Of a stretch of DNA of 64,000 bases, positions 904-61,101 are shown piece by piece. The stretch spans positions 1,645 through 65,644 of the forward strand of contig JBAYVE010000005.1 in assembly GCA_041674765.1 (NCBI GenBank), written 5' to 3'. The position numbers and the translations under genes were made by a program. Origin of the DNA: Patescibacteria group bacterium (GTDB taxonomy: Bacteria; Patescibacteriota; UBA1384; XYA2-FULL-43-10; 1-14-0-10-43-13). A model generated the notes under the pieces. The model was not told the DNA's origin and ran no database searches. It was given only the letters and a program-made list of their open reading frames with translations. Positions within the stretch are counted from its first letter, which is position 1. Each line of letters begins with the position of its first letter.

Positions 904-1677
904 ATGATTATTACAAAAGAAAAAATTGGCAAGCGGATTCGGTCTATTCGGGAGCAGGTTGGGAGATCTCAGCAGGACGTGTCTGATATTTTGGAAATCC
1001 CGCGCGTCTCAGTTTCGCAGCTTGAGGCAGGGAAACGGGAACTGACCAGTATTGAGCTGGCCAAGTTGGCTGAGTATTTTGGTGTCCAGACGGATTATAT
1101 TCTATCTGGCCAAGATGTCGAGCAGGAAGTCGAGAAACCCAAGGAAGTAGAAGAAACTGAACGGATTGCTGTTCCGAAATTGAAAAAAGAAAAATTCCGG
1201 GAAGTATTACTCTATATCTTGGAAAAAACTGCAGGCAAACTTAATGTTGGGCAAACCGTTCTTTATAAACTTCTTTACTTTTCTGACTTTAATTACTACG
1301 AAAAATTTGAGGAGCAGCTTACCGGAGCCAAGTATATGAAGAATCACTTCGGGCCGACACCGGTAGCATTTAAGGGAGTGCTTGGTGAGATGATCGAGAG
1401 TGGTGAAGTGGCGGTTGATTGTAACAAATTTCACGGCAAAGATCAGACCAGATATATTGCGCTTCGGCGGTCAAATCTGCGAGCGATCAATGGCGCAGAG
1501 AAAGAGGTGATTGACGACGTTTTGCAGAAGTTATCAGATATGAACGCCAGTCAAATCAGCGCGTATTCTCACGATGACACGCCGTGGCAGATTGCCAGAG
1601 ACGGAGAACCGATTGATTATGAAGCTGTTTTTTACCGTTCGCCGCAGTACTCTGTTAAAGATTACGAAGAGCTCTAA
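904..1677 (+). CDS. HTH (XRE-type) + C-terminal Panacea/DUF4065-like domain protein (PanA/SocA-like antitoxin-type)
   Basis: The N-terminus reads IGKRIRSIREQVGRSQQDVSDIL...LEAGKRELTSIELAKLAEYFGV, an XRE HTH. The C-terminus reads YILEKTAG.LNVGQTVLYKLLYFSDFNYYEKFEEQLTGAKYMKNHFGP, matching the Panacea/DUF4065 signature (KLLYF.D, GP). Upstream there are 3 direct GTTTACAT repeats and a TTGACA box; the transcript may be leaderless. Confidence 0.65.
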   Translation: MIITKEKIGKRIRSIREQVGRSQQDVSDILEIPRVSVSQLEAGKRELTSIELAKLAEYFGVQTDYILSGQDVEQEVEKPKEVEETERIAVPKLKKEKFREVLLYILEKTAGKLNVGQTVLYKLLYFSDFNYYEKFEEQLTGAKYMKNHFGPTPVAFKGVLGEMIESGEVAVDCNKFHGKDQTRYIALRRSNLRAINGAEKEVIDDVLQKLSDMNASQISAYSHDDTPWQIARDGEPIDYEAVFYRSPQYSVKDYEEL

Positions 1678-5447: not shown

Positions 5448-5745
5448 AGTACTCGTTGACTCTTCTGGTGCCGAGGTTTACCGGGTCGAAGGTCAAAACA
5501 ACATAAAAATTCTAGAAAAAGAGATAGATTTTGCCGGCAATTATACAAAAAGCCGCGGGCTTAATTTTAACGATGAAGAGGCACTTGTGCGTTTTTTAGA
5601 GCGATTGGTGGCAAATTATTTTGATTATTCGGTCGAAGCCTATGCTGGCGGAATTTTTTCAGAATTAGGCGATCACGAGATAGGTGACCTTTTGAAAGAG
5701 GTCAAGAAAAGAGCTAGGATAGAGCTTGTTGTCGTCAAGAATTGA
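5434..5745 (+). CDS. Hypothetical protein
   Basis: ORF overlapping the GT4 stop by 14 nt. No recognisable motifs. Confidence 0.35.
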   Translation: MKRIRVLVDSSGAEVYRVEGQNNIKILEKEIDFAGNYTKSRGLNFNDEEALVRFLERLVANYFDYSVEAYAGGIFSELGDHEIGDLLKEVKKRARIELVVVKN

Positions 5746-5790
5746 GATATGTACTTGAGAATTTACTTCAAAAATGCTAACATCTTTTAG

Positions 5791-5812
5791 TTATTCCGAG
5801 ATCGTCTAGTGG
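5791..5812 (+). repeat. 22-bp direct repeat TTATTCCGAGATCGTCTAGTGG (copy 1), identical to 6104-6125, which is the 5' acceptor/D-arm of tRNA-Gln
   Basis: Exact 22/22 match read in the sequence. The two copies bracket the GIY-YIG ORF. Confidence 0.85.
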
Positions 5813-5864
5813 TCCGACTTGCCTTCGGCAGTCGAGATCTCGCCCTTTGGGCGGACATGACACC

Positions 5865-6122
5865 ATGTATTATATTTATGTTTTATACAGTATTCATTAT
5901 CCTAAGAGATATGTTGGATGTACGGGAGATATCCAGAGAAGACTTACCGAACATAATTCTGGCAAAATGTCGTTTACAAAAAGATACATGCCTTGGAAGT
6001 TGATTCACAGCGAAGGATTTGAAACTTTAGCGGAAGCGAGATGCAGGGAGAAATATTTGAAAACTGGTGCCGGCCGACGCTTCCTAAAAACAATTTCTAA
6101 TAATTATTCCGAGATCGTCTAG
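5865..6122 (+). CDS. Small standalone GIY-YIG nuclease-domain protein
   Basis: MYYIYVLYS...YVGCTGDIQRRLTEHN...KLIHSEGFETLAEARCREKYLK, a GIY-YIG / YhbQ-like signature. The last 15 nt of the ORF are the first 15 nt of tRNA-Gln. The longer ORF-track version starts at 5847. Confidence 0.7.
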   Translation: MYYIYVLYSIHYPKRYVGCTGDIQRRLTEHNSGKMSFTKRYMPWKLIHSEGFETLAEARCREKYLKTGAGRRFLKTISNNYSEIV

Positions 6123-6181
6123 TGGCAGGACAGCAGATTCTGGATCTGCTTACCTAGGTTCGAATCCTAGTCTCGGAACCA
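6108..6181 (+). tRNA. tRNA-Gln (anticodon CUG)
   Basis: Manually folded cloverleaf. Acceptor TCCGAGA/TCTCGGA is a perfect 7 bp with U1:A72, typical of bacterial tRNA-Gln. D-stem GTCT/GGAC. Anticodon stem GCAGA/TCTGC with loop TTCTGGA. T-arm CTAGG-TTCGAAT-CCTAG. Discriminator A then CCA. Confidence 0.85.
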
Positions 6182-6297
6182 CGAGAAACAGATCAGTGCA
6201 AGCTGGTCTTTTTCTTTAGGCAAAATTGATTCTCTGCTATTATGAGTTCTGACTTTTGCGTTTTTAGTTTTAAGTTTGGCGACCGAAGGGAGCCACT

Positions 6298-7722
6298 GTG
6301 TGTTTAACTATCCCAGGGAAAATTTTATCGATAAAGGACGGCATTGCGACTGTCAAATCATCAACTGAGACGGCTCAGATCGACCTCTCTTTTGTTTTGG
6401 ACGCCAAGCCGGGGGATTGGATACTCTTTGCCACAAACAGGGCTGTGAAGGTTATTTCTGAGTCTGATGCCAAGGAGATTATATCGCTGCTTGAGGATCA
6501 TTATTCTAAAGTAGATGTCTCAAAGCTACCCCTTAAATTTAAGAAAATAATCTTCAAGGTCAGAAGCCAACACTCCAATAATTCCTCGAATAAAATGAGA
6601 AGTTCTCGACAAGCTCGAACAATAATAGATGACTCGGTCTTGACGAAGGATGAGATTATTTATCTTTTGAATTTAAAAGGGAAAGAAAACCTGGAAACTC
6701 TTTTTGCGGAGGCCAACTCTATACGGAAAGAGAGGATAGAGGACTTTGTTTGCATCCACGGAATTATCGAGTTTTCAAATTTTTGCAAAAATGATTGTTT
6801 ATATTGTGGGCTTCGGAAAAGCAAAAAAACGAGTAGATATAGAATGACCTGTCGGGAAATAGAAAATGTTGCAAAAAAATCTGTTGAAGATGACAGCTAT
6901 AAATTATTGGTCTTACAAAGCGGCGAGGACGATCATTATTTGGATGATGATTTGATAAAAATTATCTTAAATATTCGAGCGAAGATGAAAGTCTTTATTT
7001 TCCTATCTGTCGGGGAAAGGAGCAAGTCTTTTTACGACAGGGCGAAAAAGGCTGGGGCGAGCGGGGCATTAATTCGTTTTGAGAGTTCAGATAACGATTT
7101 TTATGCCAAGATAAGGCCGGGCCATAAGTTGCAGGATAGATTGGATATTATTAATCATTTAAGGGACACCGGCTATTATGTCGCGACGGGTAGTCTCTTC
7201 GGCTTGCCTGGCCAAACCTTGGAGCAAATCGCTGACGATTTGCTGACGATTAAGAAGCTGGGCATCCCGATGATCTCGTCAGGACCATGGCTTGCTGCAA
7301 GTGGAACGCCACTTGCAGGCAAGAATTTCCAATTTCCAATTTCCAACTTCCAATCAAATCCCAAATATCAAATATCAAAAAAAATTTCAAACTTCACATG
7401 GCAAAATACAATATACAATATTCAAAATACTACTGAGAGGCTTGAGCTTGCCTTGAAATACATTGCCGTTGCCAGGTTTATGATGCCGGAGATTAAGATT
7501 CCGGTGACGACAGCGTTGGAAACATTGGATCCAGACGGACGGCACAAGGCACTGCTAGCTGGGGCGAATGCGCTAATGTTCAATTTGACTCCTGAAAAAT
7601 ATTGCGAGAAATATTCGATCTACGACAACAAGTATCGTGAACGTGAGAAAGTTTGGCAAAAGTATGGCCTTTTCAGCGGTGAAGAAAGCTGGGAGATGCT
7701 GGAGGAAAGATTGATGTTGTAA
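6298..7722 (+). CDS. Fusion protein: N-terminal HypC/HybG/HupF-like domain + HydE/BioB/PylB-like radical SAM domain
   Basis: The N-terminus MCLTIPGKILSIKDGIATV....IDLSFV....GDWILFATNRA aligns with HypC (MCIGVPGQI..IDG..A.V.....DL.LV....GQWVLVHVGFA). The radical SAM domain has IEFSNFCKNDCLYCGLRK (CX3CX2C) and a ...LQSGED block as in HydE/BioB. GTG start with RBS AAGGGAG. An in-frame TTTCCAA-repeat insertion lies at ~7321-7425. Confidence 0.7.
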   Translation: MCLTIPGKILSIKDGIATVKSSTETAQIDLSFVLDAKPGDWILFATNRAVKVISESDAKEIISLLEDHYSKVDVSKLPLKFKKIIFKVRSQHSNNSSNKMRSSRQARTIIDDSVLTKDEIIYLLNLKGKENLETLFAEANSIRKERIEDFVCIHGIIEFSNFCKNDCLYCGLRKSKKTSRYRMTCREIENVAKKSVEDDSYKLLVLQSGEDDHYLDDDLIKIILNIRAKMKVFIFLSVGERSKSFYDRAKKAGASGALIRFESSDNDFYAKIRPGHKLQDRLDIINHLRDTGYYVATGSLFGLPGQTLEQIADDLLTIKKLGIPMISSGPWLAASGTPLAGKNFQFPISNFQSNPKYQISKKISNFTWQNTIYNIQNTTERLELALKYIAVARFMMPEIKIPVTTALETLDPDGRHKALLAGANALMFNLTPEKYCEKYSIYDNKYREREKVWQKYGLFSGEESWEMLEERLML

Positions 7723-16024: not shown

Positions 16025-16212
16025 ACGCAAAATTTCTAATTTCTAACTTTCTAATTTCTAAACAAAAAACTTTCAGTTTTTAGTTATTGGTGCTTGTTTA
16101 AGTTAATTAGTCCGCCGGCTGGCGGATCAGGCCAATTAGGTTAATTTTAATTAATAAACTAGTCTCATCCTGTCAAATTCCATATTACACCACTTTTATA
16201 TCCCCAATCCCT

Positions 16213-32600: not shown

Positions 32601-32776
32601 TACGTATTAAGTATTAAGTATTAAGTGGTAGGTGTTATGTGGAGGAAGGCGCTGGGGAATGTACTAAGGGGTAAATATTAAGTATTATGCAAGAGAACAA
32701 AAAAATCGAATCTGAATATTTATTTGTCATTCCAGACTGTGGCTCGATCCGCCAACTGGCGGACTGGAATCCAGCC

Positions 32777-33160
32777 ATGCCCTTCGTAGCTGTCAAGCGA
32801 AGTGGGAGAGTGAAGTCATACTATATTTACATTATGGCTAGTCGAAGGAAAGGCACATTGTATATCGGTGTGACGAATGATTTGATCAGAAGAATCTGGC
32901 AGCACAAGAATAAAGTTATTGATGGATTTACGAAAGATTATAATGTCTCCTTATTGGTTTATTATGAAGAAACAGCAGATATTAAATCAGCAATCAAAAG
33001 AGAAAAGCAATTGAAGTCTTGGAATCGACAATGGAAGATAGAATTGATTGAGAAAACAAACCCTGATTGGCATGATTTGTACAGAGAGATAGCTGGATCC
33101 TCGGGTATTACTCTCGAGAGCACCGCCGATCCCGAGGATGACAGGGGAGTGATTCCATAA
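32777..33160 (+). CDS. Small GIY-YIG nuclease-domain protein (YhbQ-like)
   Basis: SYYIYIMASRRKGTLYIGVTNDLIRRIWQHK...LVYYEE......AIKREKQLKSWNR.WK. The 5' region 32700-32776 is a palindromic repeat element (the same element, inverted, is at 2707-2760). Confidence 0.65.
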   Translation: MPFVAVKRSGRVKSYYIYIMASRRKGTLYIGVTNDLIRRIWQHKNKVIDGFTKDYNVSLLVYYEETADIKSAIKREKQLKSWNRQWKIELIEKTNPDWHDLYREIAGSSGITLESTADPEDDRGVIP

Positions 33161-38555: not shown

Positions 38556-39520
38556 AAGGACAGAACATTAAAAATTCAACAGTATAAAGGTCGAAGTATA
38601 GAGTATATAGGTAGAGATCAAAATCCCTAAATACTAAATACTAACCCCTTAATACTAATAAAAGAGGGCAAGAAAAAGACAAGCCCAAACCCAGTATTAA
38701 GTATTCTGTATATAGTTATAGGCATATCGGAAATCCGGCATTGCCACTTAGGTAATCGCATCTTTTAGCCGATATATTCCCCTAAATACTAAATACTAAT
38801 CACTTAATACTAATATCATCCCACTTCGCTCCTATCGGAGCTTCGCGGGATCTTCGAGTAATAGATTTATCCTTGACACAGGAGTTTAGAGATAAGTCTG
38901 AAACCAAGCGTTGAGCAATAAGCTAATAAGAATTAGTCATTTTGCTGAATGTGAAAGTGGACGAATATAAACTCAATTACTCGTAAATATTTTATTGTTC
39001 GAACGGAGCGAGAACTTCTCGTTTACGCTCGAAGAATAAACGGTGCTTATTCCGGCGCGCGCTCTTAGGAGGGGCAAACGCCAGAATTCCGGCCTTTGTG
39101 CTCATTTTGAGCATGGGTCAAACACAAATGGCGTGAATTAACGCCGTCCTTCGCATAAAGCTACGGACGGCATCGCCACAATTCCTCTGTCATCCTCGGG
39201 CTCGACCCGGGGATCCCAGACATCTTTTCGGATTTCGATATTCGAATTTCGAAATTTCCAGCATCACTTGCATAGCAAGTTGGTGCCGGATGGCTTGTCT
39301 CCTTCTTGCCCTCATATGCCGAGTGATCGGCATAGTATAAAGGGAAAAGTAGAAAGTATCATGGTTACCGTTCGAGCAGCCGTAAGGCATGCGAGAACTC
39401 CCAAAGTACTTAATACTAACCTCTTAATACTAAACATATATATCTGGCTCTCGCTTGAATCTGCCGAGACTACCATGTCATCCCCGGGCTTGACCCGGGG
39501 ATGACATGAGGCTTTTTAAT
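38556..39520. repeat. ~1 kb ORF-free region packed with TAATACT/AGTATTA microsatellites and palindromic elements (GTCATCCTCGGGCTCGACCCGGGGATCC at 39187-39215; CATGTCATCCCCGGGCTTGACCCGGGGATGACATG at 39477-39510; AAAGCTACGGA; CGAACGGAGCGAGAACTTCTCG)
   Basis: Visible repeats. This region forms the left border of the GC-rich island. Confidence 0.7.
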
Positions 39521-40044: not shown

Positions 40045-40314
40045 TATCTGCCAGAGCGCCTTTGCCTGCGAGAGCAGGACTTGTATAAGGATGTACATGA
40101 GGTGCTCTGGACCAATCTTTTGAGAAATGAAGGATTTATTCTTCGAACGTAGTGAGGAGTTCTCGACTTCTAGAACATCGCTCGAGCAATAAGTTATTTT
40201 TCCTCAAAATTTTTTTAGAGGAGTCTATGTGTCTCGCCTCAGGCGAGCCGAAAGCCTTCAAGGACATAGACTAGCCGGTCTTCGATAAATGAAGTGAAGA
40301 TCGGTGGAGGGAAT

Positions 40315-41361
40315 GCGATGACACGCATTTTCTTGAGTTCCAACCCCGAAAATCTGGCGGCTGAGTTGGCCGCTTTCCGCCTGACCGCAACGGTTGAGGC
40401 AGAATTCGGCGACACGGTCGTCGAAGGGTCAATTCTGACTCTCGCGCATCACGGCGCCCGGTCGGCGAACTCGGCTCCCTGCCTCGCCAGCAATGGTGTG
40501 GCCGGTGACCCGGTGCAGGTCGAGGCGATTGGCGTGAGCCACATCGACCTCGATTCCCTGGGCGGCGTAATGGCCGTCCTCGGGTCCAAGCCGGAATCGG
40601 TCGGCTTCTGGGCCTTGTCGGCCTTCGTCGATACGAATGGCCCCCACAAGTTGGCCCAGGCCGGCGCCGAGGCAGCGGATGTCGCCCGGCTCTACGCCTT
40701 TTGGGCGTATAGCCAGGCGCACCGGCTCATGCCGGATCGTTCCGGCGCCGTCACGGATGTGACCGAGCAGGTCACCGAGGCCATGGAGGCAATCGCGGCC
40801 ATCCTGGCCGACGACCCCGCCATGCTGGCCGCCGGCAATGATTTCCGCTCGGCGGAGGATTCGCTGAACAAGCGATCCTTTGTCGAGATGGTGGGAGGCG
40901 TTGGCGTCCGCGTTGCGGACGTTTTCGTCAGCCACCTCTATGGCTCGCCGGAAGGCGAGCTGGCGAAGGCCGTCGTGGCCTTTAACACCGTCACGGGTAC
41001 CGTGACGGTTTCCCTTGCTGATCCCATCCCCGGGGTCAGCGCCTGCACGATTGTGCAGGGAATCTGGGGGACGGAAGCCGGCGGGCATGCCGGCATCGCG
41101 GGTAGTCCCCGCGGTCGCCGCATGACTTTGGCTGATCTTGCCCGGGCGGCGGAAGCCGTCCGGGAGGTCATCGCCTCCACTTCGGTGGAGTGCGAGGACT
41201 GCGGGCAGGTGGTCTCCGACCTCCTGCCCGGCCAAATCCCCGACGGTTGGGGCACCGTCGGGTGCTACGAGGATTGCCCCAAGCACGAGGAGGCGTATTG
41301 CCCCTCGTGCTTGCCCGCCGCTCAGGCGGCGGGGCGTCATCGCTGTGGGCATGACCACTAG
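40315..41361 (+). CDS. Hypothetical protein (62% GC island) with C-terminal Cys/His-rich metal-binding tail; weak DHH-phosphoesterase-like motifs
   Basis: RBS GGAGGGA. Contains GVSHIDLDSLGG (similar to DHH motif I H..D.D..G) and GGHAGIAGS (similar to DHH-family GGGH motif), but no DHH triad. C-terminal CEDCGQ...CYEDCPKHEEAYCPSC...HRCGHDH. The antisense 333-aa ORF is judged a GC-shadow. Confidence 0.45.
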   Translation, partial: AMTRIFLSSNPENLAAELAAFRLTATVEAEFGDTVVEGSILTLAHHGARSANSAPCLASNGVAGDPVQVEAIGVSHIDLDSLGGVMAVLGSKPESVGFWALSAFVDTNGPHKLAQAGAEAADVARLYAFWAYSQAHRLMPDRSGAVTDVTEQVTEAMEAIAAILADDPAMLAAGNDFRSAEDSLNKRSFVEMVGGVGVRVADVFVSHLYGSPEGELAKAVVAFNTVTGTVTVSLADPIPGVSACTIVQGIWGTEAGGHAGIAGSPRGRRMTLADLARAAEAVREVIASTSVECEDCGQVVSDLLPGQIPDGWGTVGCYEDCPKHEEAYCPSCLPAAQAAGRHRCGHDH

Positions 41362-41560
41362 CGATGACGGAAGGCTTTGCTTGTTGAGCCAATCCAACAA
41401 GCTGCTTCGCTTGAGGCAGGAAGAAATCAAGCAACAACCCGCTCCGACCTTTTAGTCGGAGCACCAGAGCCTGCCCTAGGACAAGAAGTTCTAGGGCACT
41501 CCTTATTCAATTTAATTTCGATTGAATTGAATAAAAGAGAATGGCTTCAAAGAAGTTTTG

Positions 41561-41647
41561 CAAAAATTACTGTCTTATAAATTGATCTATCAGATTAGTT
41601 ATAAGGCAATAATGCCTTGATTGTGAGTCGAAAGGAGAAAGACCATG
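41561..41647 (+). promoter_or_regulatory. AT-rich regulatory element inside GC-rich island: AAATTACTGTCTTATAAATTGATCTA...TTATAAGGCAATAATGCCTT...GAAAGGAGAAA-ATG; second copy at 42719-42805
   Basis: The two ~85-nt copies are about 85% identical. Each contains the palindrome AAGGCAATAATGCCTT and an RBS, and ends at the ATG of a small ORF. Confidence 0.7.
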
Positions 41648-41830
41648 GCTTACAATTGCAAAAAGACGGACCATGATGGTCCGAAGCGTGGCGCTGGCGC
41701 CTTTCGGGGTCGCCGCGCCGACGCAAAAGTGGCGGCTTCGCGCCGCCGCCGCCAGGATGGCCGCAATGAAGCGGCCAAAGGACTGGCAGAACAGGGGAAC
41801 GCTCAGGAGGGCGTTCCCAAACCATTTTGA
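41645..41830 (+). CDS. Small basic protein (61 aa, Arg/Ala-rich)
   Basis: ORF immediately following the repeated regulatory element + RBS AAAGGAG. Confidence 0.35.
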   Translation: MAYNCKKTDHDGPKRGAGAFRGRRADAKVAASRRRRQDGRNEAAKGLAEQGNAQEGVPKPF

Positions 41831-41916
41831 TTAAGATTTAGAGTTTTTTGATTTAAAATTCCAATCTTCATCAAATCCCATTATGGCCATTGAGTCTGAG
41901 GGAATGGAGGTGAAGT

Positions 41917-42204
41917 ATGTTGAAACATTTTTTACGGTTTTTAAACCGTATAGCTAAAGCCGAGGTCGTAAAGGCCGAAGCGGAAGCTATGGCGGCCAAA
42001 GTGGCCGCCGACGAAGCCGCAAGGAAGGCGGCACGAGAAAATCACGAAGCGCAGGAAGCGCTTTTGGTCGTAACTGCCCTGAAGGATTCGGGGCGGTTGA
42101 TCTCATCCATCACAGAATTCACTGGTGGGTGTGATCGGGGTGCGTGGCACCCCACGAAGATTTGGAGTCTTGATGGGCAACAGATTGCCCACTGGACTCT
42201 TTGA
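41917..42204 (+). CDS. Hypothetical protein; 5' leader (41860-41916) shares a conserved motif with leader of 46971 gene
   Basis: Leader ...CTTCATCAAA.C.CATTGAG.CTGAG.G.A.GGAGGTGAAGTATG is shared with 46913-46970. Confidence 0.4.
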   Translation: MLKHFLRFLNRIAKAEVVKAEAEAMAAKVAADEAARKAARENHEAQEALLVVTALKDSGRLISSITEFTGGCDRGAWHPTKIWSLDGQQIAHWTL

Positions 42205-42331
42205 AAAGGATTGGCCGGACGACGCGGCCATAAGCTACTCAAATGATTGAGTAGCACAGTCGAGCCATGCAGCCTCGCGGTATCGGGAATAAGCTCATAG
42301 AGCCCCAACCGCAAAAAGGAGGTGTAGTGCA

Positions 42332-43197: not shown

Positions 43198-45150
43198 ATG
43201 AAGATGAATAAAAGTCTTCCGATCGCCGACTATCGCGAGCAGATTCTGCAAGCGATAGAGGTAAACTCGGCGGTGGTGATCACTGCCGAAACGGGAGCTG
43301 GGAAATCGACCCAGGTACCCCAATTCCTTATGGAAGCGGGATATCGAGTGGTCGTGACCCAGCCACGGCGTCTTGCCGCAAGGACAGTGGCCGAGCGTGT
43401 AGCCGAAGAAGTCGGTTGCCAGCTTGGTGAAGAAGTCGGCTTTCGAACTGGCTTCGAGCGTAAGGACTCGGCTCAAACCAAAGTGCTTTTTTGCACGGAT
43501 GGTTTGCAGCTCGTCCGCGAGTTGACCGGCAACGGTGCCACCGACGTTCTTGTTATTGATGAAGTCCATGAGTGGAACATCAACATCGAGACGTTGGTCG
43601 CCTGGACGCGCAAGCGTTTGGGTGAAGGTGTCGACTTCAAGGTTGTGCTGATGAGTGCGACCTTGGATGCCGAGAGGCTTGCCGCGTTCTTTGGCGAGAC
43701 AGTGCCGGTGATCTCGGTGCCAGGTCGACTTTTTCCGGTCGAAACAAAAAGTGGCAGGACGAGCGAACTGGTGCCGACCGTGCGTGGACTGGTAGCTGAG
43801 GGCAGAAATGTCCTTATTTTCCAGCCTGGCAAGCGGGAGATCGAGGCGACGGTTCGGGAATTAACCGGGCTGAACGTTGAAGTCCTCCCCCTGCATGGGG
43901 ATATGGAATCGGCCGATCAGCGCCGAGCGTTTCGTCACTATGACCGTCCCAAAGTGGTCGTGGCGACGAATGTGGCCCAGACCTCCATTACCATCGATGA
44001 TATCGATGCGGTGGTGGATAGTGGGGTCGAGCGGCGGGTTGAGTTGGTTGACGGGATTGAAGGTCTTTACCTCAAGCCCATTAGCCAAGCAGATTGCAAG
44101 CAGCGCGCCGGTCGAGCCGGACGTTGCAAAGAGGGCATTTATGTTCTCTGCTCTGATTCGTCACTGGAAAGCCGTCCGGCATATCCCAAGGCGGAGATCG
44201 AGCGAAGTCGTCTCGACCAGTTGGTACTGCGTTTGGCGGTGACTGGCTTTGATGCTACAGCATTAGAGTTTTTTCATCAGCCGGAGCGGGCTGTGCTGGA
44301 AGATGCGAAGCGTGCCTTGCATGCATTGGGGGCGATGTCGGAGGACGGCCAGGTCACGAAGATCGGGCGTCAGATGGCAAAACTGCCGATCAGCGTGCAG
44401 TATGCGCGCATGGTGATCGAAGCGGCTCGTCTCGGCGAAGAAGAGGACGTAACGACGATTGTCGCACTCCTCGAAGCCGGCGGATTGCGTGCCAGCAAGG
44501 ATGATCGCTGGCGGAAATTGACGGCGGAGATACAGAGTGATCTGCTTGCCGAGCTGGACCTCTTTGAGGCCTGTCAAGGCTTCTCTGGCGAGGATTTCCG
44601 TGAAAACGGCGTCTTTGCCAAGGCCTATTTTCGGGCAAAGGAGATTCGGGCGAAGCTCCGTCAGGCGCTTGTCAGTGCGGGGATCAGTTTTGACCGGTCG
44701 GAGAAACACGACCGGCAAGCGATCATGAAGGCCTGCGTTGCTGGGATGGTGGACCACCTTTATCACACAGACGGGTGGAGTGATTACCATAACGGTAGTG
44801 GGGGCACGCGCCAAAAAGCGCGCGAAAGTGTTGTCTCCGGTTCGCCGGAGTGGGTCGTGGGCTTGCCCAAAGATATTGGGTTTAAGGATCGCCGCGGTTA
44901 TGACCGCGTCCTGAACCTGGTGGCGATGGTGACGGCCGTCGACCCAATGTGGCTTGCCGAGGTGGCGCCGCAGCTAGTGCGGCTGGATACGGGACTTTCC
45001 CCTCACTTCGACTCCGAGAAGGACCTGGTTGTTTCGACGACACAGACATTCTTCAAAGAGTCGAAGATCGGGGAGGAAATTATCCCTGATCCGGCGCACG
45101 CAGAGGCGGCGTCGGTGTTTGCAAACTGGCTCGCCAGCCAGTGCCTTTAA
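43198..45150 (+). CDS. DEAH-box (HrpA/HrpB/DHX-like) ATP-dependent RNA/DNA helicase
   Basis: Motif I ETGAGKSTQVPQFL, Ia VVVTQPRRLAARTVAERVA, DEVH (VLVIDEVHE), SAT (LMSATL), motif V VVVATNVAQTSITIDDIDAVVDSG, motif VI QRAGRAGRCKEG. Start set at MKMNKS after RBS GAGGAG. Confidence 0.8.
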   Translation: MKMNKSLPIADYREQILQAIEVNSAVVITAETGAGKSTQVPQFLMEAGYRVVVTQPRRLAARTVAERVAEEVGCQLGEEVGFRTGFERKDSAQTKVLFCTDGLQLVRELTGNGATDVLVIDEVHEWNINIETLVAWTRKRLGEGVDFKVVLMSATLDAERLAAFFGETVPVISVPGRLFPVETKSGRTSELVPTVRGLVAEGRNVLIFQPGKREIEATVRELTGLNVEVLPLHGDMESADQRRAFRHYDRPKVVVATNVAQTSITIDDIDAVVDSGVERRVELVDGIEGLYLKPISQADCKQRAGRAGRCKEGIYVLCSDSSLESRPAYPKAEIERSRLDQLVLRLAVTGFDATALEFFHQPERAVLEDAKRALHALGAMSEDGQVTKIGRQMAKLPISVQYARMVIEAARLGEEEDVTTIVALLEAGGLRASKDDRWRKLTAEIQSDLLAELDLFEACQGFSGEDFRENGVFAKAYFRAKEIRAKLRQALVSAGISFDRSEKHDRQAIMKACVAGMVDHLYHTDGWSDYHNGSGGTRQKARESVVSGSPEWVVGLPKDIGFKDRRGYDRVLNLVAMVTAVDPMWLAEVAPQLVRLDTGLSPHFDSEKDLVVSTTQTFFKESKIGEEIIPDPAHAEAASVFANWLASQCL

Positions 45151-45161
45151 AGGAGGGCAAA

Positions 45162-46676
45162 ATGAGCGAAAAACTCCTAGAGGTGCTGGCGGCAAACAAA
45201 GCGCGACAAGATCGCGCCCGCCAGCTTAATATTCGGGCCGGGGCAGAAATGTTTCCCGTGCTCGACCAGGCGCAAATGAGAGCCTGGATGACCGATAAGG
45301 CAGCGGGAGCGCGCCGGATGGCAGAGATTGCCGATCCTGAAGCTCTACGCTTGCCTGCCCTCGACGAGGTTTTGGTTCAAACGGTGATTCGCGAGAACCC
45401 CGACGAGATCGAGCTTCTCGGGGCGATGCGAACAGTGGATTACAAGGATAGTTACGGCCGTTCCAGGCCGAATCCGCGGGTCCGCATTGACTTCAGGGGA
45501 GAGAATGCCAACGACTGGCAAAGGCTCCCCGACGAGATCCGGTTGCCGGGTGGCCGTGAGGTTTGCCTGTATTCCGCCATTGACGGATATGGGTATTACA
45601 TCGAGGCTGTGCCCTCTGAGTTTAAGGCAAAAGTGCGTGATTGCCTAAACCAGGCTCAATGGGACAACTGGCCTCAGGCCGATCGACCGGAGATCCCAGT
45701 TCTCGACCCGGCCGACGACGAGGCGGCTATCCCTGAAATCACCACTGTCCAGTACGGGCAGTGCGTGGTGACGGGCGAGCCGCTCATCGCCTTTGGTACT
45801 TTGGCTCCGAAGAGCCGATACTACACGACGGACCCATATTTCGTGGTCCAGTGGTACCGGTCGATTGAGGAGGCCGAAGTGTCTCGGGTAAAGGCCGTCG
45901 AAACGCTCGAGAAAGAGCTAGCGGCTGTCCGGGAGTGCCGGGAACTGGAGATCGCCAAGCAGGAAGCTGAAGCGGTCAAATTAATATTCGAGTCACTCTA
46001 CCGCGAAGTAGATAATACCCGCGAGTGGCTTGAGTTGCCGGATGAATTGAGGAATCGTCTTCGTAGCCGGCATTGTAGCTATGTACCATCCTCATTGCTG
46101 GAAATCCGCCAATGGCAAGCAGAGACAGAGGCGTTAATCGCTGAGGTAGGGCCAGCTTTGGTGGAAATCAAGCGTCAGCAGGCGGAAGCCGAGCGTCAGG
46201 CACGCGAAGAGCAGGAAGCTGCTGTTCGTGCCGAAGAAGCTCGGCGGGTTCGTGAGGAGGAAGCCCATCGTGGGCAGATGGAAGAGATTCTGACTGCCAT
46301 GCGGGGTGTCCTCGGGTATGTGCCTGTAATCCGTTGCGACTTTGAAGAAGTCGCCGGCAAGAATGGTACATACTTGGAAAATTGGGGCCGCCTCACAGGT
46401 ATTAACTGTGATGGCGAGTCCGACTCGTACTGTGACGGCCGTAATGCCGTGGTGGTGCAGTCTGTTGAAACCACCGGCGGTGTGCTGGAGTTCCTGGCCT
46501 ACTGGAAGTATGGCAATTGGAACTTGGCCGCTCGCTGGCGAGAACTTTCCGAAGCCGCGGCACACGCCGTTGAGATTGGGGAGGTTCGGGCGGAGGATCT
46601 GGAAGATCCGAAGCCAGTAGAAGATCTGGGGGCGTCGCTTGCGGCGCTCCAGGCGAAGTTCAAAGGATTGAACTAA
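45162..46676 (+). CDS. Hypothetical protein with central coiled-coil (ERQAREEQEAAVRAEEARRVREEEAHR)
   Basis: RBS AGGAGGG. The start is 12 nt after the helicase stop. No recognised domain. Confidence 0.45.
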   Translation: MSEKLLEVLAANKARQDRARQLNIRAGAEMFPVLDQAQMRAWMTDKAAGARRMAEIADPEALRLPALDEVLVQTVIRENPDEIELLGAMRTVDYKDSYGRSRPNPRVRIDFRGENANDWQRLPDEIRLPGGREVCLYSAIDGYGYYIEAVPSEFKAKVRDCLNQAQWDNWPQADRPEIPVLDPADDEAAIPEITTVQYGQCVVTGEPLIAFGTLAPKSRYYTTDPYFVVQWYRSIEEAEVSRVKAVETLEKELAAVRECRELEIAKQEAEAVKLIFESLYREVDNTREWLELPDELRNRLRSRHCSYVPSSLLEIRQWQAETEALIAEVGPALVEIKRQQAEAERQAREEQEAAVRAEEARRVREEEAHRGQMEEILTAMRGVLGYVPVIRCDFEEVAGKNGTYLENWGRLTGINCDGESDSYCDGRNAVVVQSVETTGGVLEFLAYWKYGNWNLAARWRELSEAAAHAVEIGEVRAEDLEDPKPVEDLGASLAALQAKFKGLN

Positions 46677-48589: not shown

Positions 48590-48886
48590 ATTTTTATTCC
48601 CGACAAGGAGTATTTCAGTGCGGTTTTTTGTTATAGAAAATAAGGGGGGATTATGATAGGATTGACGGAAGTATTAAGGGCTTAGTATTAAGTATTAAGT
48701 ATAGAGTATAGAGTATTAAGTTAGCAGGTGGATCATACCCCACCTAGCCTCCCCTTTCTAAGGGGAGGAATAACTGGACGACATCAAATATTAGGTATTA
48801 GGTTGGGCAGAGCAATGTTTCGGGCAGGAGATTTCTCCGCCTACGCCTTCGGCGGAGAGTCAAAATGACAACAGGATAATAACCAA

Positions 48887-60831: not shown

Positions 60832-61101
60832 ATGGCCAATTGGCATTGGTATGTATATATTATCGAATGTCTTGATAAGACCTATTATACTGGGATGACT
60901 TGGAATGTAGCTAATCGGCTGGATCAGCATGTTTCTGGATTAGGTTCGAAATATACAGGGAAACACGGAGTTTCTAAGCTTGCTTATTATGAGGAATTTA
61001 ATGATTTGGAAATGGCTCGTAATAGGGAGAAGCAGTTAAAAGGCTGGAGTCAGGAAAAGAAAAGGAAGCTGATCTCCGGTGAATGGGGAAAAGAATGGTG
61101 A
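60832..61101 (+). CDS. Small GIY-YIG nuclease-domain protein (YhbQ-like), third paralog
   Basis: WYVYIIECLDKTYYTGMTWNVANRLDQH......LAYYEEF....ARNREKQLKGWSQEKK. Confidence 0.65.
   Translation: MANWHWYVYIIECLDKTYYTGMTWNVANRLDQHVSGLGSKYTGKHGVSKLAYYEEFNDLEMARNREKQLKGWSQEKKRKLISGEWGKEW

Follow-up and report, generated by a model that had tools for sequence, protein, structure and literature searches.

How can a protein-coding gene lodge in the 5′ part of a tRNA gene and leave the cell with an intact copy of that tRNA? The question is raised by a 64,000-nt stretch from a Patescibacteria group bacterium (GenBank contig JBAYVE010000005.1; the whole stretch is called the window, and positions are counted from its first nucleotide). 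There, a gene for a GIY-YIG nuclease ends inside tRNA-Gln(CTG) and is preceded by a second copy of the 5′ end of the same tRNA. An earlier note on this DNA had seen in the arrangement a target-site duplication, left by a homing or integration event that regenerates the tRNA. We followed up the locus computationally, together with related loci (L001 and so on) from other genomes. In our favored reading, to which we give a probability of about 0.6, positions 5813-6107 are a minimal selfish element that entered tRNA-Gln(CTG), spreads in a homing-like manner, rebuilds its target, and uses the tRNA promoter.

Results

The window contains two exact copies of the 22-nt direct repeat TTATTCCGAGATCGTCTAGTGG, at 5791-5812 and 6104-6125, and in 100 shuffles no such match arose, even when three mismatches were permitted. 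Without gaps, the repeat lengthens to 30 nt at 90% identity (5783-5812 and 6096-6125). The downstream copy opens an intact tRNA-Gln(CTG), and the exactly 291 bp between the 22-nt copies (5813-6103) encode an 85-residue GIY-YIG protein (Table 1). Its open reading frame (ORF) runs from an ATG to a TAG that falls within the tRNA D-loop, and the final four sense codons plus the stop are nucleotides 1-15 of the tRNA. The exact repeat, the intact tRNA, and the GIY-YIG ORF that ends in it are as the earlier note described them. ARAGORN and Rfam, the latter even at E <= 10, called no tRNA at the upstream copy (position 5795), where the note had asked whether a second complete tRNA might begin.

The upstream copy resumes beyond a 43-nt insert, where CATGACACC (5856-5864) agrees with the tRNA sequence CAGGACAGC (6126-6134) in 7 of 9 nucleotides. 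The duplication therefore covers the tRNA from about −12 to +27 and is split by a hairpin module. What had been called a target-site duplication is thus confirmed insofar as the tRNA 5′ part is duplicated and the tRNA is intact, but it is not a plain 22 bp, being longer and interrupted by the module. The order of parts is native leader, tRNA nt 1-18, hairpin module, degenerate nt 19-27, ORF, second leader, and complete tRNA. We refer to the incomplete upstream copy as the stub, to its first 18 tRNA nucleotides as segment A, and to the degenerate nt 19-27 as segment B′; in relatives the equivalent of B′, TAGGACAGC, provides an AGGA Shine-Dalgarno sequence. One promoter-like site and one terminator flank stub, ORF, and tRNA together, and a promoter scan predicted no further promoter-like site between the stub and the tRNA.

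Empty versions of the locus were sought, as the earlier note had proposed, by querying metagenomes with the HypC-radical-SAM fusion protein encoded downstream of the tRNA. This search yielded 23 related loci, none of which carries a GIY-YIG gene by tblastn; the flanking protein of these GIY-YIG-free relatives is 61-66% identical in amino acid sequence to that of the window. A near-same tRNA-Gln(CTG) is present at five of them (L059-L062 and L064), being identical to the window's in L061 and differing by 1 nt in L062, where it is oriented as in the window and precedes the HypC-radical-SAM gene by 137 nt. The tRNA-Gln promoter in L060, L061, and L064 is CTTGAGAAATT..AAAATGTTATTAT, with 40 nt from the −35 box to tRNA +1. 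Boxes and spacing are the same as those before the window's stub, and L062 is similar. Judged by this sequence comparison, the GIY-YIG-free loci with tRNA-Gln are empty sites, and the promoter at 5755-5783 is the native tRNA-Gln promoter, now in front of the whole unit. Since the native promoter precedes the stub, the stub marks the original gene position and the working tRNA has moved 313 bp downstream. The notion that the tRNA is cargo of the element was rejected for the window, since at this locus relatives without a GIY-YIG gene have both the tRNA and its promoter. In L061 (~1330-1510, minus strand), 22 nt of the tRNA-Gln 3′ end recur ~150 nt past the gene, which suggests, from sequence, a different small insertion on the 3′ side of the tRNA.

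The layout recurs in relatives. Each of the four closest homologues (60-75% amino acid identity) directly precedes a tRNA-Gln (CTG or TTG), amid surrounding genes that are unrelated, and four further homologues show the same tRNA-Gln layout. In L004, L006, and L007 the stub consists of the first 18-19 nt of the genome's own tRNA, followed by TCCG..CGAGATCTCG..CGGA, then TAGGACA.., and then the ATG. Stub and module are present in L004-L008 and L082-L085, whereas L001-L003 have lost most of the upstream stub or lie on short contigs. The nearest relatives of the gene adjoin tRNA-Gln with the repeat, amid differing neighbors, and genomes without the gene exist.

We then scanned one genome per species with a query alignment of nine sequences. 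The 50 loci returned span Patescibacteria (several classes), Bacteroidota, Ignavibacteriota/Chlorobiota, Omnitrophota, Margulisiibacteriota, and others. In 36 of the 50, the ORF has a tRNA or transfer-messenger RNA (tmRNA) gene on its own strand no more than 120 nt away, and in none is there one on the opposite strand; tRNA density in the outer flanks leads one to expect about 1.5 such loci. Four more are tandem arrays terminating at a tRNA. The linked gene, just after or just before the ORF, is tRNA-Gln, Asn, Arg, Leu, Tyr, Ser, or Glu, and once tmRNA, and the proteins cluster by tRNA isotype and orientation in a neighbor-joining tree. The ORF and tRNA are separated by 0-16 nt or overlap by 15 nt, recurrently in many genomes. 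On the other side of the ORF there is usually a partial copy of the same tRNA, broken by one or more GC-rich hairpins. In a Saccharibacteria metagenome-assembled genome (MAG), a family member lies 113 nt downstream of the tmRNA gene (L052, 741-1452).

The wider family comprises 3,059 clusters at 50% identity (E <= 1e-10). Many of its gene calls are extended by a translated module (..PPRLD..EAG..) or translated tRNA arms (..GSNPSPS.., ..VRIPLSP..), and they provide independent evidence for the same layout. ORF copies are truncated in L047, L055, and L056, and tandem arrays occur in L019, L020, L025, L033, and L036; both are typical of selfish elements. The wider family, selfish or domesticated, that had been suspected from the window alone is supported as a selfish one by a tRNA-adjacent layout that recurs across phyla, by arrays, and by truncated copies.

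In most genomes the stub is near-identical to the host's own tRNA, although the proportion of differing synonymous sites (pS) in the ORF is 0.6-0.9; the insertions must therefore be recent or the stubs actively maintained. In L006 all 10 nucleotides after the module match the host tRNA. The length of the duplication varies from nt 1-27 up to nt 1-55, and its left edge lies from 1 to 23 nt upstream of the tRNA, usually fading where conservation of the leader ends. Segment B′ of L084 resembles the tRNA of L004, its nearest ORF relative, and not that of its own host. The greater divergence of the ORF than of the flank between L084 and L007 was dropped as evidence for replacement, the flank being a conserved RNase P RNA gene.

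Two of these loci have features of their own. L001 2750-2970 (the same locus as L009) is a rearranged element in which the upstream stub is cut down to TTCGGGGA; a 16-nt inverted repeat of the tRNA-Gln leader brackets the intact tRNA-Gln, after which comes a second full-length tRNA-Gln copy with a module in its D-loop, and just upstream is an RNase P RNA gene (1919-2248, 154.6 bits). At L086 393-630, the GIY-YIG-adjacent tRNA-Asn has a group I intron (Rfam, 103 bits) in its anticodon loop and therefore holds two different selfish insertions.

The protein was characterized by sequence comparison and a predicted structure. Its match to the Pfam GIY-YIG family (PF01541, E = 7e-16) scores 58.7 bits against a cut-off of 22.6, and its PDB sequence matches are the UPF0213 entries 1ywl (2e-6) and 1zg2 (9e-4). 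The AlphaFold model (pLDDT 91.6) has strands at residues 2-9, 15-20, and 44-52 and helices at 23-32 and 55-65, a predicted β-β-α-β-α fold as in the GIY-YIG nuclease superfamily. The best Foldseek matches are 1zg2 and the Slx1 nuclease domain (TM 0.64-0.68, probability 1.0, 30-37% identity); I-TevI is much weaker (E about 0.3), and the NCBIfam model grpIintron_endo reaches only 16 bits against a cut-off of 56. Across 28 homologues Y16, G18, R26, H30, and E62 are invariant and Y5 is nearly so, and no Asn is found among the invariant or nearly invariant columns after E62. Family proteins are 80-85 residues long and single-domain, without an auxiliary domain, and the window protein stops 20 residues past the catalytic Glu, with no C-terminal DNA-binding region of the I-TevI/Seg type. 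Absence of both an auxiliary domain and a conserved C-terminal Asn distinguishes the Slx1-like group (PMC1564403), and both are absent here. By sequence and modeled fold, the enzyme is a minimal Slx1/UPF0213-like protein (COG2827) and not an I-TevI-type homing endonuclease or UvrC. The homing or integration first suggested for this locus holds up as the insertion of a selfish gene, but not with an enzyme of the I-TevI type.

Within the window's subclade synonymous sites are saturated at the pS given above, the proportion of differing nonsynonymous sites (pN) is 0.10-0.25, and dN/dS is about 0.07-0.17 where computable; the gene is therefore functional and old, under purifying selection. An NCBI protein from a Patescibacteria MAG is 100% identical to the window's 85-residue protein; a separate exact-protein look-up with the window ORF gave no match.

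The 43-nt module has a predicted RNA folding energy of −19.7 kcal/mol (z = −2.7). In the predicted folds, the tRNA D-stem closes a pair of neighboring hairpins (z = −1.6 to −2.7). The core TCCG..CGAGATCTCG..GGA is invariant in all eight subclade members, in which merely 9 of 75 third-codon positions of the ORF are invariant. Given this difference, the module is under strong constraint and is not a decaying scar. Its stems vary in sequence with pairing kept, being CGACTTGCC/GGCAGTCG in the window, CGCCC/GGGCG in L004, and CCCAGC/GCTGG in L085. Rfam has no family matching the stub or the module. TCCG..CG(A)GA units nest in each other or sit at hairpin tips (L007 versus L084; L004 versus the window). 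A second module type, CCCGCCTCGAC..GTCGAGGCGGG, is common to Gln-, Asn-, and Leu-linked genes, and a third, TCCGTTAGCTAACGGA, occurs in the T-loop of tRNA-Asn copies in three genera. Where the tRNA 5′ part is the one duplicated, the module often follows GG and precedes YAG. A strict rule that modules occur only in loops was not upheld, since some follow nt 7-11, at the junction of acceptor stem and D-stem.

Other Features of the Window

Table 1. Parts of the tRNA-Gln unit, in order, and the two paralogous GIY-YIG genes
Feature	Position	Strand	Basis
Sigma-70-like promoter, TTGAGA / 17-nt spacer / TGcTAACAT, extended −10	5755..5783	+	Promoter scan
Native leader TCTTTTAGTTAT, first copy of the repeat's 12-nt leader portion	5783..5794	+	30-nt repeat, 90% identity
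Stub segment A, tRNA nt 1-18: 5′ acceptor strand, D-stem 5′ strand, D-loop through the conserved GG	5795..5812	+	18/18 match to 6108-6125
43-nt GC-rich module TCCGACTTGCCTTCGGCAGTCGAGATCTCGCCCTTTGGGCGGA after the D-loop GG; two predicted hairpins around palindrome CGAGATCTCG	5813..5855	+	RNA fold
Stub segment B′ CATGACACC, degenerate copy of tRNA nt 19-27 CAGGACAGC	5856..5864	+	7/9 match; ATG directly after
GIY-YIG nuclease ORF, 85 residues, minimal Slx1/UPF0213-like catalytic domain	5865..6122	+	Pfam PF01541, fold comparison
Second leader copy TCTAATAATTAT, inside the 3′ end of the ORF	6096..6107	+	9/12 identical to 5783-5794
Intact, functional tRNA-Gln(CTG) gene, displaced 313 bp from its promoter	6108..6181	+	ARAGORN, Rfam 62.3 bits
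Intrinsic terminator-like hairpin and T-run closing the unit	6190..6218	+	Sequence prediction
Paralogue 2, GIY-YIG ORF from GTG 32810, inverted hairpin modules on both flanks	32725..33160	+	Pfam; sequence comparison
Paralogue 3, GIY-YIG, 33% identical to the tRNA-Gln-linked gene, amid other repeat elements	60832..61101	+	Pfam

The unit has as neighbors a GT4 glycosyltransferase gene, a gene for a 103-residue protein without a Pfam match, and the HypC-radical-SAM gene. The latter is a single ORF (6298-7722) in which a HypC/HupF domain is fused to radical-SAM and BATS domains (BioB/HydE-like), a fusion kept in relatives.

The two other GIY-YIG genes reported in the window are real (Pfam, 1e-14 and 1e-16), and the three proteins are mutually just 33-40% identical. 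Paralogue 2 is flanked upstream by TGTCAT..TCCGCCAACTGGCGGA..ATCCAGC and downstream by an inverted counterpart at ~33090-33150; no tRNA was called beside it, and Rfam gave no credible match in its flanks. An ORF-less copy of these two hairpin flanks, resembling a miniature inverted-repeat transposable element (MITE), lies at 2470-2770 on the minus strand. Positions 32725-32772 recur there almost unchanged as the reverse complement of 2715-2765, a segment that contains the perfect palindrome TCCGCCAGCTGGCGGA (2724-2739), a 16-mer also found in the D-loop of the tRNA-Asn stub of L013.

The exact 43-nt module is single-copy in the 64 kb of genome covered, and related TCCGCC..GGCGGA hairpins occur at 2724, 16111, and 32748. 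Isolated hairpins of this unit type, which is also the one seen in tRNA stubs elsewhere, are intergenic at 16111-16126 and 48836-48856. A perfect hairpin with a 15-bp stem, CATGTCATCCCCGGG-CTTGA-CCCGGGGATGACATG, lies at 39474-39508, and its arms (GTCATCC..GGATGAC) resemble the flanks of paralogue 2. The 21-nt repeat CCGCAAGnACACGGAGTCGAA has four plus-strand copies (2676, 53949, 61185, and 62503; 0.01 expected) and is part of a longer repeat flanking paralogue 3 and mnmA. Two regions, ~40200-42300 and ~44600-45200, are GC-rich with many short perfect hairpins, the rest of the window being roughly 40% GC.

Discussion

In the reading we favor, the element consists of the hairpin module, a short tRNA-derived spacer, the 85-residue nuclease gene, and a second leader with tRNA nt 1-18. 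The native promoter and tRNA nt 1-18 have stayed upstream as a dead, module-split stub, and downstream a complete tRNA-Gln has been restored. The ORF would be expressed from the tRNA promoter, and the tRNA would be freed from the shared transcript by its normal 5′ and 3′ processing, so that the insertion would be cheap for the host. The nuclease would break intact tRNA genes, probably near the D-loop GG|YAG where the module sits, and repair from an occupied copy, with tRNA sequence as homology arms, would copy the element in. Because of the module, the stub would escape cleavage, no longer resemble a tRNA, and recombine poorly; the module may also be the cis site of the nuclease. The regenerated tRNA would remain a target, which would explain the tandem arrays.

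We favor homing-like copying over transposition as the mode of movement on several grounds, all drawn from sequence comparison. The left edge of the repeat is variable and fades where leaders cease to be conserved; the second leader (9/12) and segment B′ (7/9) look like element-borne sequence from a related donor; B′ of L084 and the stub of L010 are not host-derived; and tandem arrays would be expected if a regenerated tRNA could be struck anew. L084, L010, and the imperfect leader repeat also lead us to favor a duplication carried by the element over one made at insertion.

Several points weigh against this reading. The enzyme is a bare catalytic domain without a DNA-binding domain, unlike known homing endonucleases, and a 2006 survey of the superfamily regarded prokaryotic Slx1-like proteins as minimal, vertically inherited, putative (structure-specific) repair enzymes (PMC1564403). 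Self-cleavage of the regenerated tRNA would have to be tolerated. The module core is so strictly conserved that it suggests a specific function, for which a homing model has no need. The nearest empty site is distant, as the divergence of the flanking protein indicates, and no occupied/empty polymorphism was seen within a species. No vehicle for horizontal spread was identified among phage, plasmid, and IMG/VR collections: IMG/VR contained no close relatives, and phage records and one Azospirillum replicon gave few, weak, partial matches. Finally, the stub of L010 is not copied from the adjacent tRNA.

Transposition proper is an unlikely but serious alternative. The GIY-YIG protein would then act as a structure-specific transposase or nickase with the hairpin modules as cis-acting ends, and staggered nicks in a tRNA gene folded as a cloverleaf or cruciform would yield a long, target-derived duplication; small hairpin units might also insert alone into loops. 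Such a mechanism would fit the tracking of the host's own tRNA by both module flanks in most loci (as in the 10/10 match of L006), the inverted modules that bracket paralogue 2 and their ORF-less, MITE-like copy at about 2470-2770, the nested or tip-borne hairpin units (L007 versus L084; L004 versus the window), and the TCCGTTAGCTAACGGA unit in tRNA-Asn T-loops of three genera. Slx1 proteins, the closest structural relatives, cleave branched and stem-loop DNA. The tRNA-Gln type of element, however, has a one-sided module, the duplication varies in length and left edge (over the ranges given above), and the L010 stub and the L084 B′ do not come from the host. We also know of no GIY-YIG transposase in bacteria.

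That the gene instead benefits its host, as a nuclease for tRNA or DNA maintenance with a tRNA-like hairpin leader as its regulator or substrate, we consider improbable. Strong purifying selection on the protein, the invariant module core, and the constant same-strand tRNA linkage would all suit such a role, and the sole tRNA link in the 2006 survey is a fusion of an Slx1-like domain to TrmH (PMC1564403), a D-loop G18 methyltransferase. But genomic relatives keep the tRNA without the gene, and the linked isotype changes between clades. Nor is a housekeeping gene expected to form tandem arrays, leave truncated copies, or have several divergent paralogues in one genome.

Direct repeats of part of a tRNA around foreign DNA are the classical signature of an attachment site, and the locus could in principle be the scar of a prophage or island at tRNA-Gln, later reduced to 313 bp. 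We regard this as very improbable and already contradicted by the identical compact layout in many genomes. There is no integrase in or near the insert, the GIY-YIG gene being the sole ORF between the repeats; the repeat comprises the leader and the 5′ part of the tRNA (nt 1-18, or 1-27 split), not the 3′ part; and viral contigs, phages, and plasmids hold no close relative. Tandem tRNA duplications are common, and L001 does have a second, module-bearing full-length tRNA-Gln, but a decayed tandem pair with an ORF between by coincidence is scarcely credible and already contradicted, given that no tRNA is predicted upstream, that the stub is 18/18 identical to the tRNA whereas the leader and B′ differ, and that the ORF is tRNA-linked in 36 of 50 loci against about 1.5 expected. 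A group I intron was rejected, with no Intron_gpI match in 5700-6250 even at E <= 10, whereas the same model scores 103 bits in L086.

A more radical proposal, which we think doubtful, is that targeting is by nucleic acid or DNA structure and not by protein. In one version, the bare Slx1-like nuclease would recognize cloverleaf or cruciform tRNA genes and hairpin tips and insert hairpin units in loops. In the other, its own 5′ untranslated region, a conserved protein-binding hairpin with tRNA-derived arms on both sides, would serve as a guide to the matching tRNA gene. Either version would explain how an enzyme of 80 residues tracks isotypes, as well as the host-identical arms, the invariant core, and the nested hairpins. 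Mobile DNA of this sort would be new, and the enzyme might even be a programmable nuclease of very small size.

Should the favored reading, a homing-like selfish element, be true, a very large set of uncharacterized 'GIY-YIG nuclease family proteins', with some 3,000 clusters at 50% identity in Patescibacteria, Bacteroidota, Ignavibacteriota, Omnitrophota, and others, would consist not of repair enzymes but of the proteins that drive a selfish element of about 0.3 kb, among the smallest autonomous ones known. Besides splicing and intergenic parking, there would be a third way to inhabit an essential gene, namely to rebuild it by duplication and borrow its promoter. The layout also accounts for annotation artifacts (ORFs running into tRNAs, N-terminal 'PPRLD..EAG' extensions, and partial tRNA fragments) and points to sites where tRNA loci of streamlined genomes are prone to rearrangement. 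It lends itself to testing how a minimal nuclease acquires target specificity.

Comparison with Known Systems

The closest precedent is SegB of phage T4, a free-standing GIY-YIG homing endonuclease encoded in the T4 tRNA gene cluster, whose 27-bp recognition site includes the conserved T-psi-C motif of tRNA genes and which drives its own inheritance into genomes without it (PMC2330249). Like the window element, it is a GIY-YIG nuclease gene among tRNA genes. SegB, however, is phage-borne and of the I-TevI type with a DNA-binding region, whereas the window protein is an 85-residue Slx1-like protein on a bacterial chromosome; moreover, segB lies between tRNA genes and splits none, with no stub, hairpin module, or regenerated tRNA. 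As proteins, UPF0213 (COG2827; 1ywl, 1zg2) and eukaryotic Slx1 are more alike, sharing the minimal domain, the conserved Tyr/Tyr/Arg/His/Glu set, and the lack of a conserved C-terminal Asn, but we found no report linking them to tRNA genes, tRNA stubs, or hairpin modules.

Genomic islands and prophages with integrases resemble the element in placing foreign DNA in a tRNA gene and preserving one functional copy through a direct repeat of part of the tRNA. They rely on tyrosine or serine recombinases, as a rule enter the 3′ half of the tRNA, and span kilobases; the window element is 313 bp without a recombinase, has the 5′ part duplicated, and leaves a hairpin-split remnant. Group I introns in tRNA genes that carry homing genes are likewise selfish insertions that leave tRNA function intact (L086 has such an intron), but they depend on a ribozyme and splicing and occupy the anticodon loop, in contrast to a duplication in the D-loop region around 291 bp that are nearly all ORF.

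IS200/IS605-TnpB insertion sequences (IS) and repetitive extragenic palindromes with their associated transposases (REP/RAYT, or REPtrons) also tie a small nuclease gene to conserved imperfect palindromes, and the window, like them, has ORF-less hairpin derivatives (2470-2770, 2724-2739, and 16111-16126). Their enzymes are of the HUH or RuvC class and not GIY-YIG, and the window element has no TnpA partner and has its hairpins embedded in tRNA-derived sequence. Classical IS elements and transposons have terminal inverted repeats and a duplication of fixed length; the tRNA-Gln type has a one-sided module and a variable duplication, and paralogue 2 does have inverted hairpin flanks and an ORF-less derivative.

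In the full-text literature, of which coverage was incomplete, we found no description of tRNA-linked Slx1-like GIY-YIG genes, stubs, or hairpin modules, and the tRNA-linked GIY-YIG element has probably not been described before. It is best filed with free-standing homing-type nuclease genes and with target-restoring tRNA elements, to which it adds a conserved hairpin part that neither explains.

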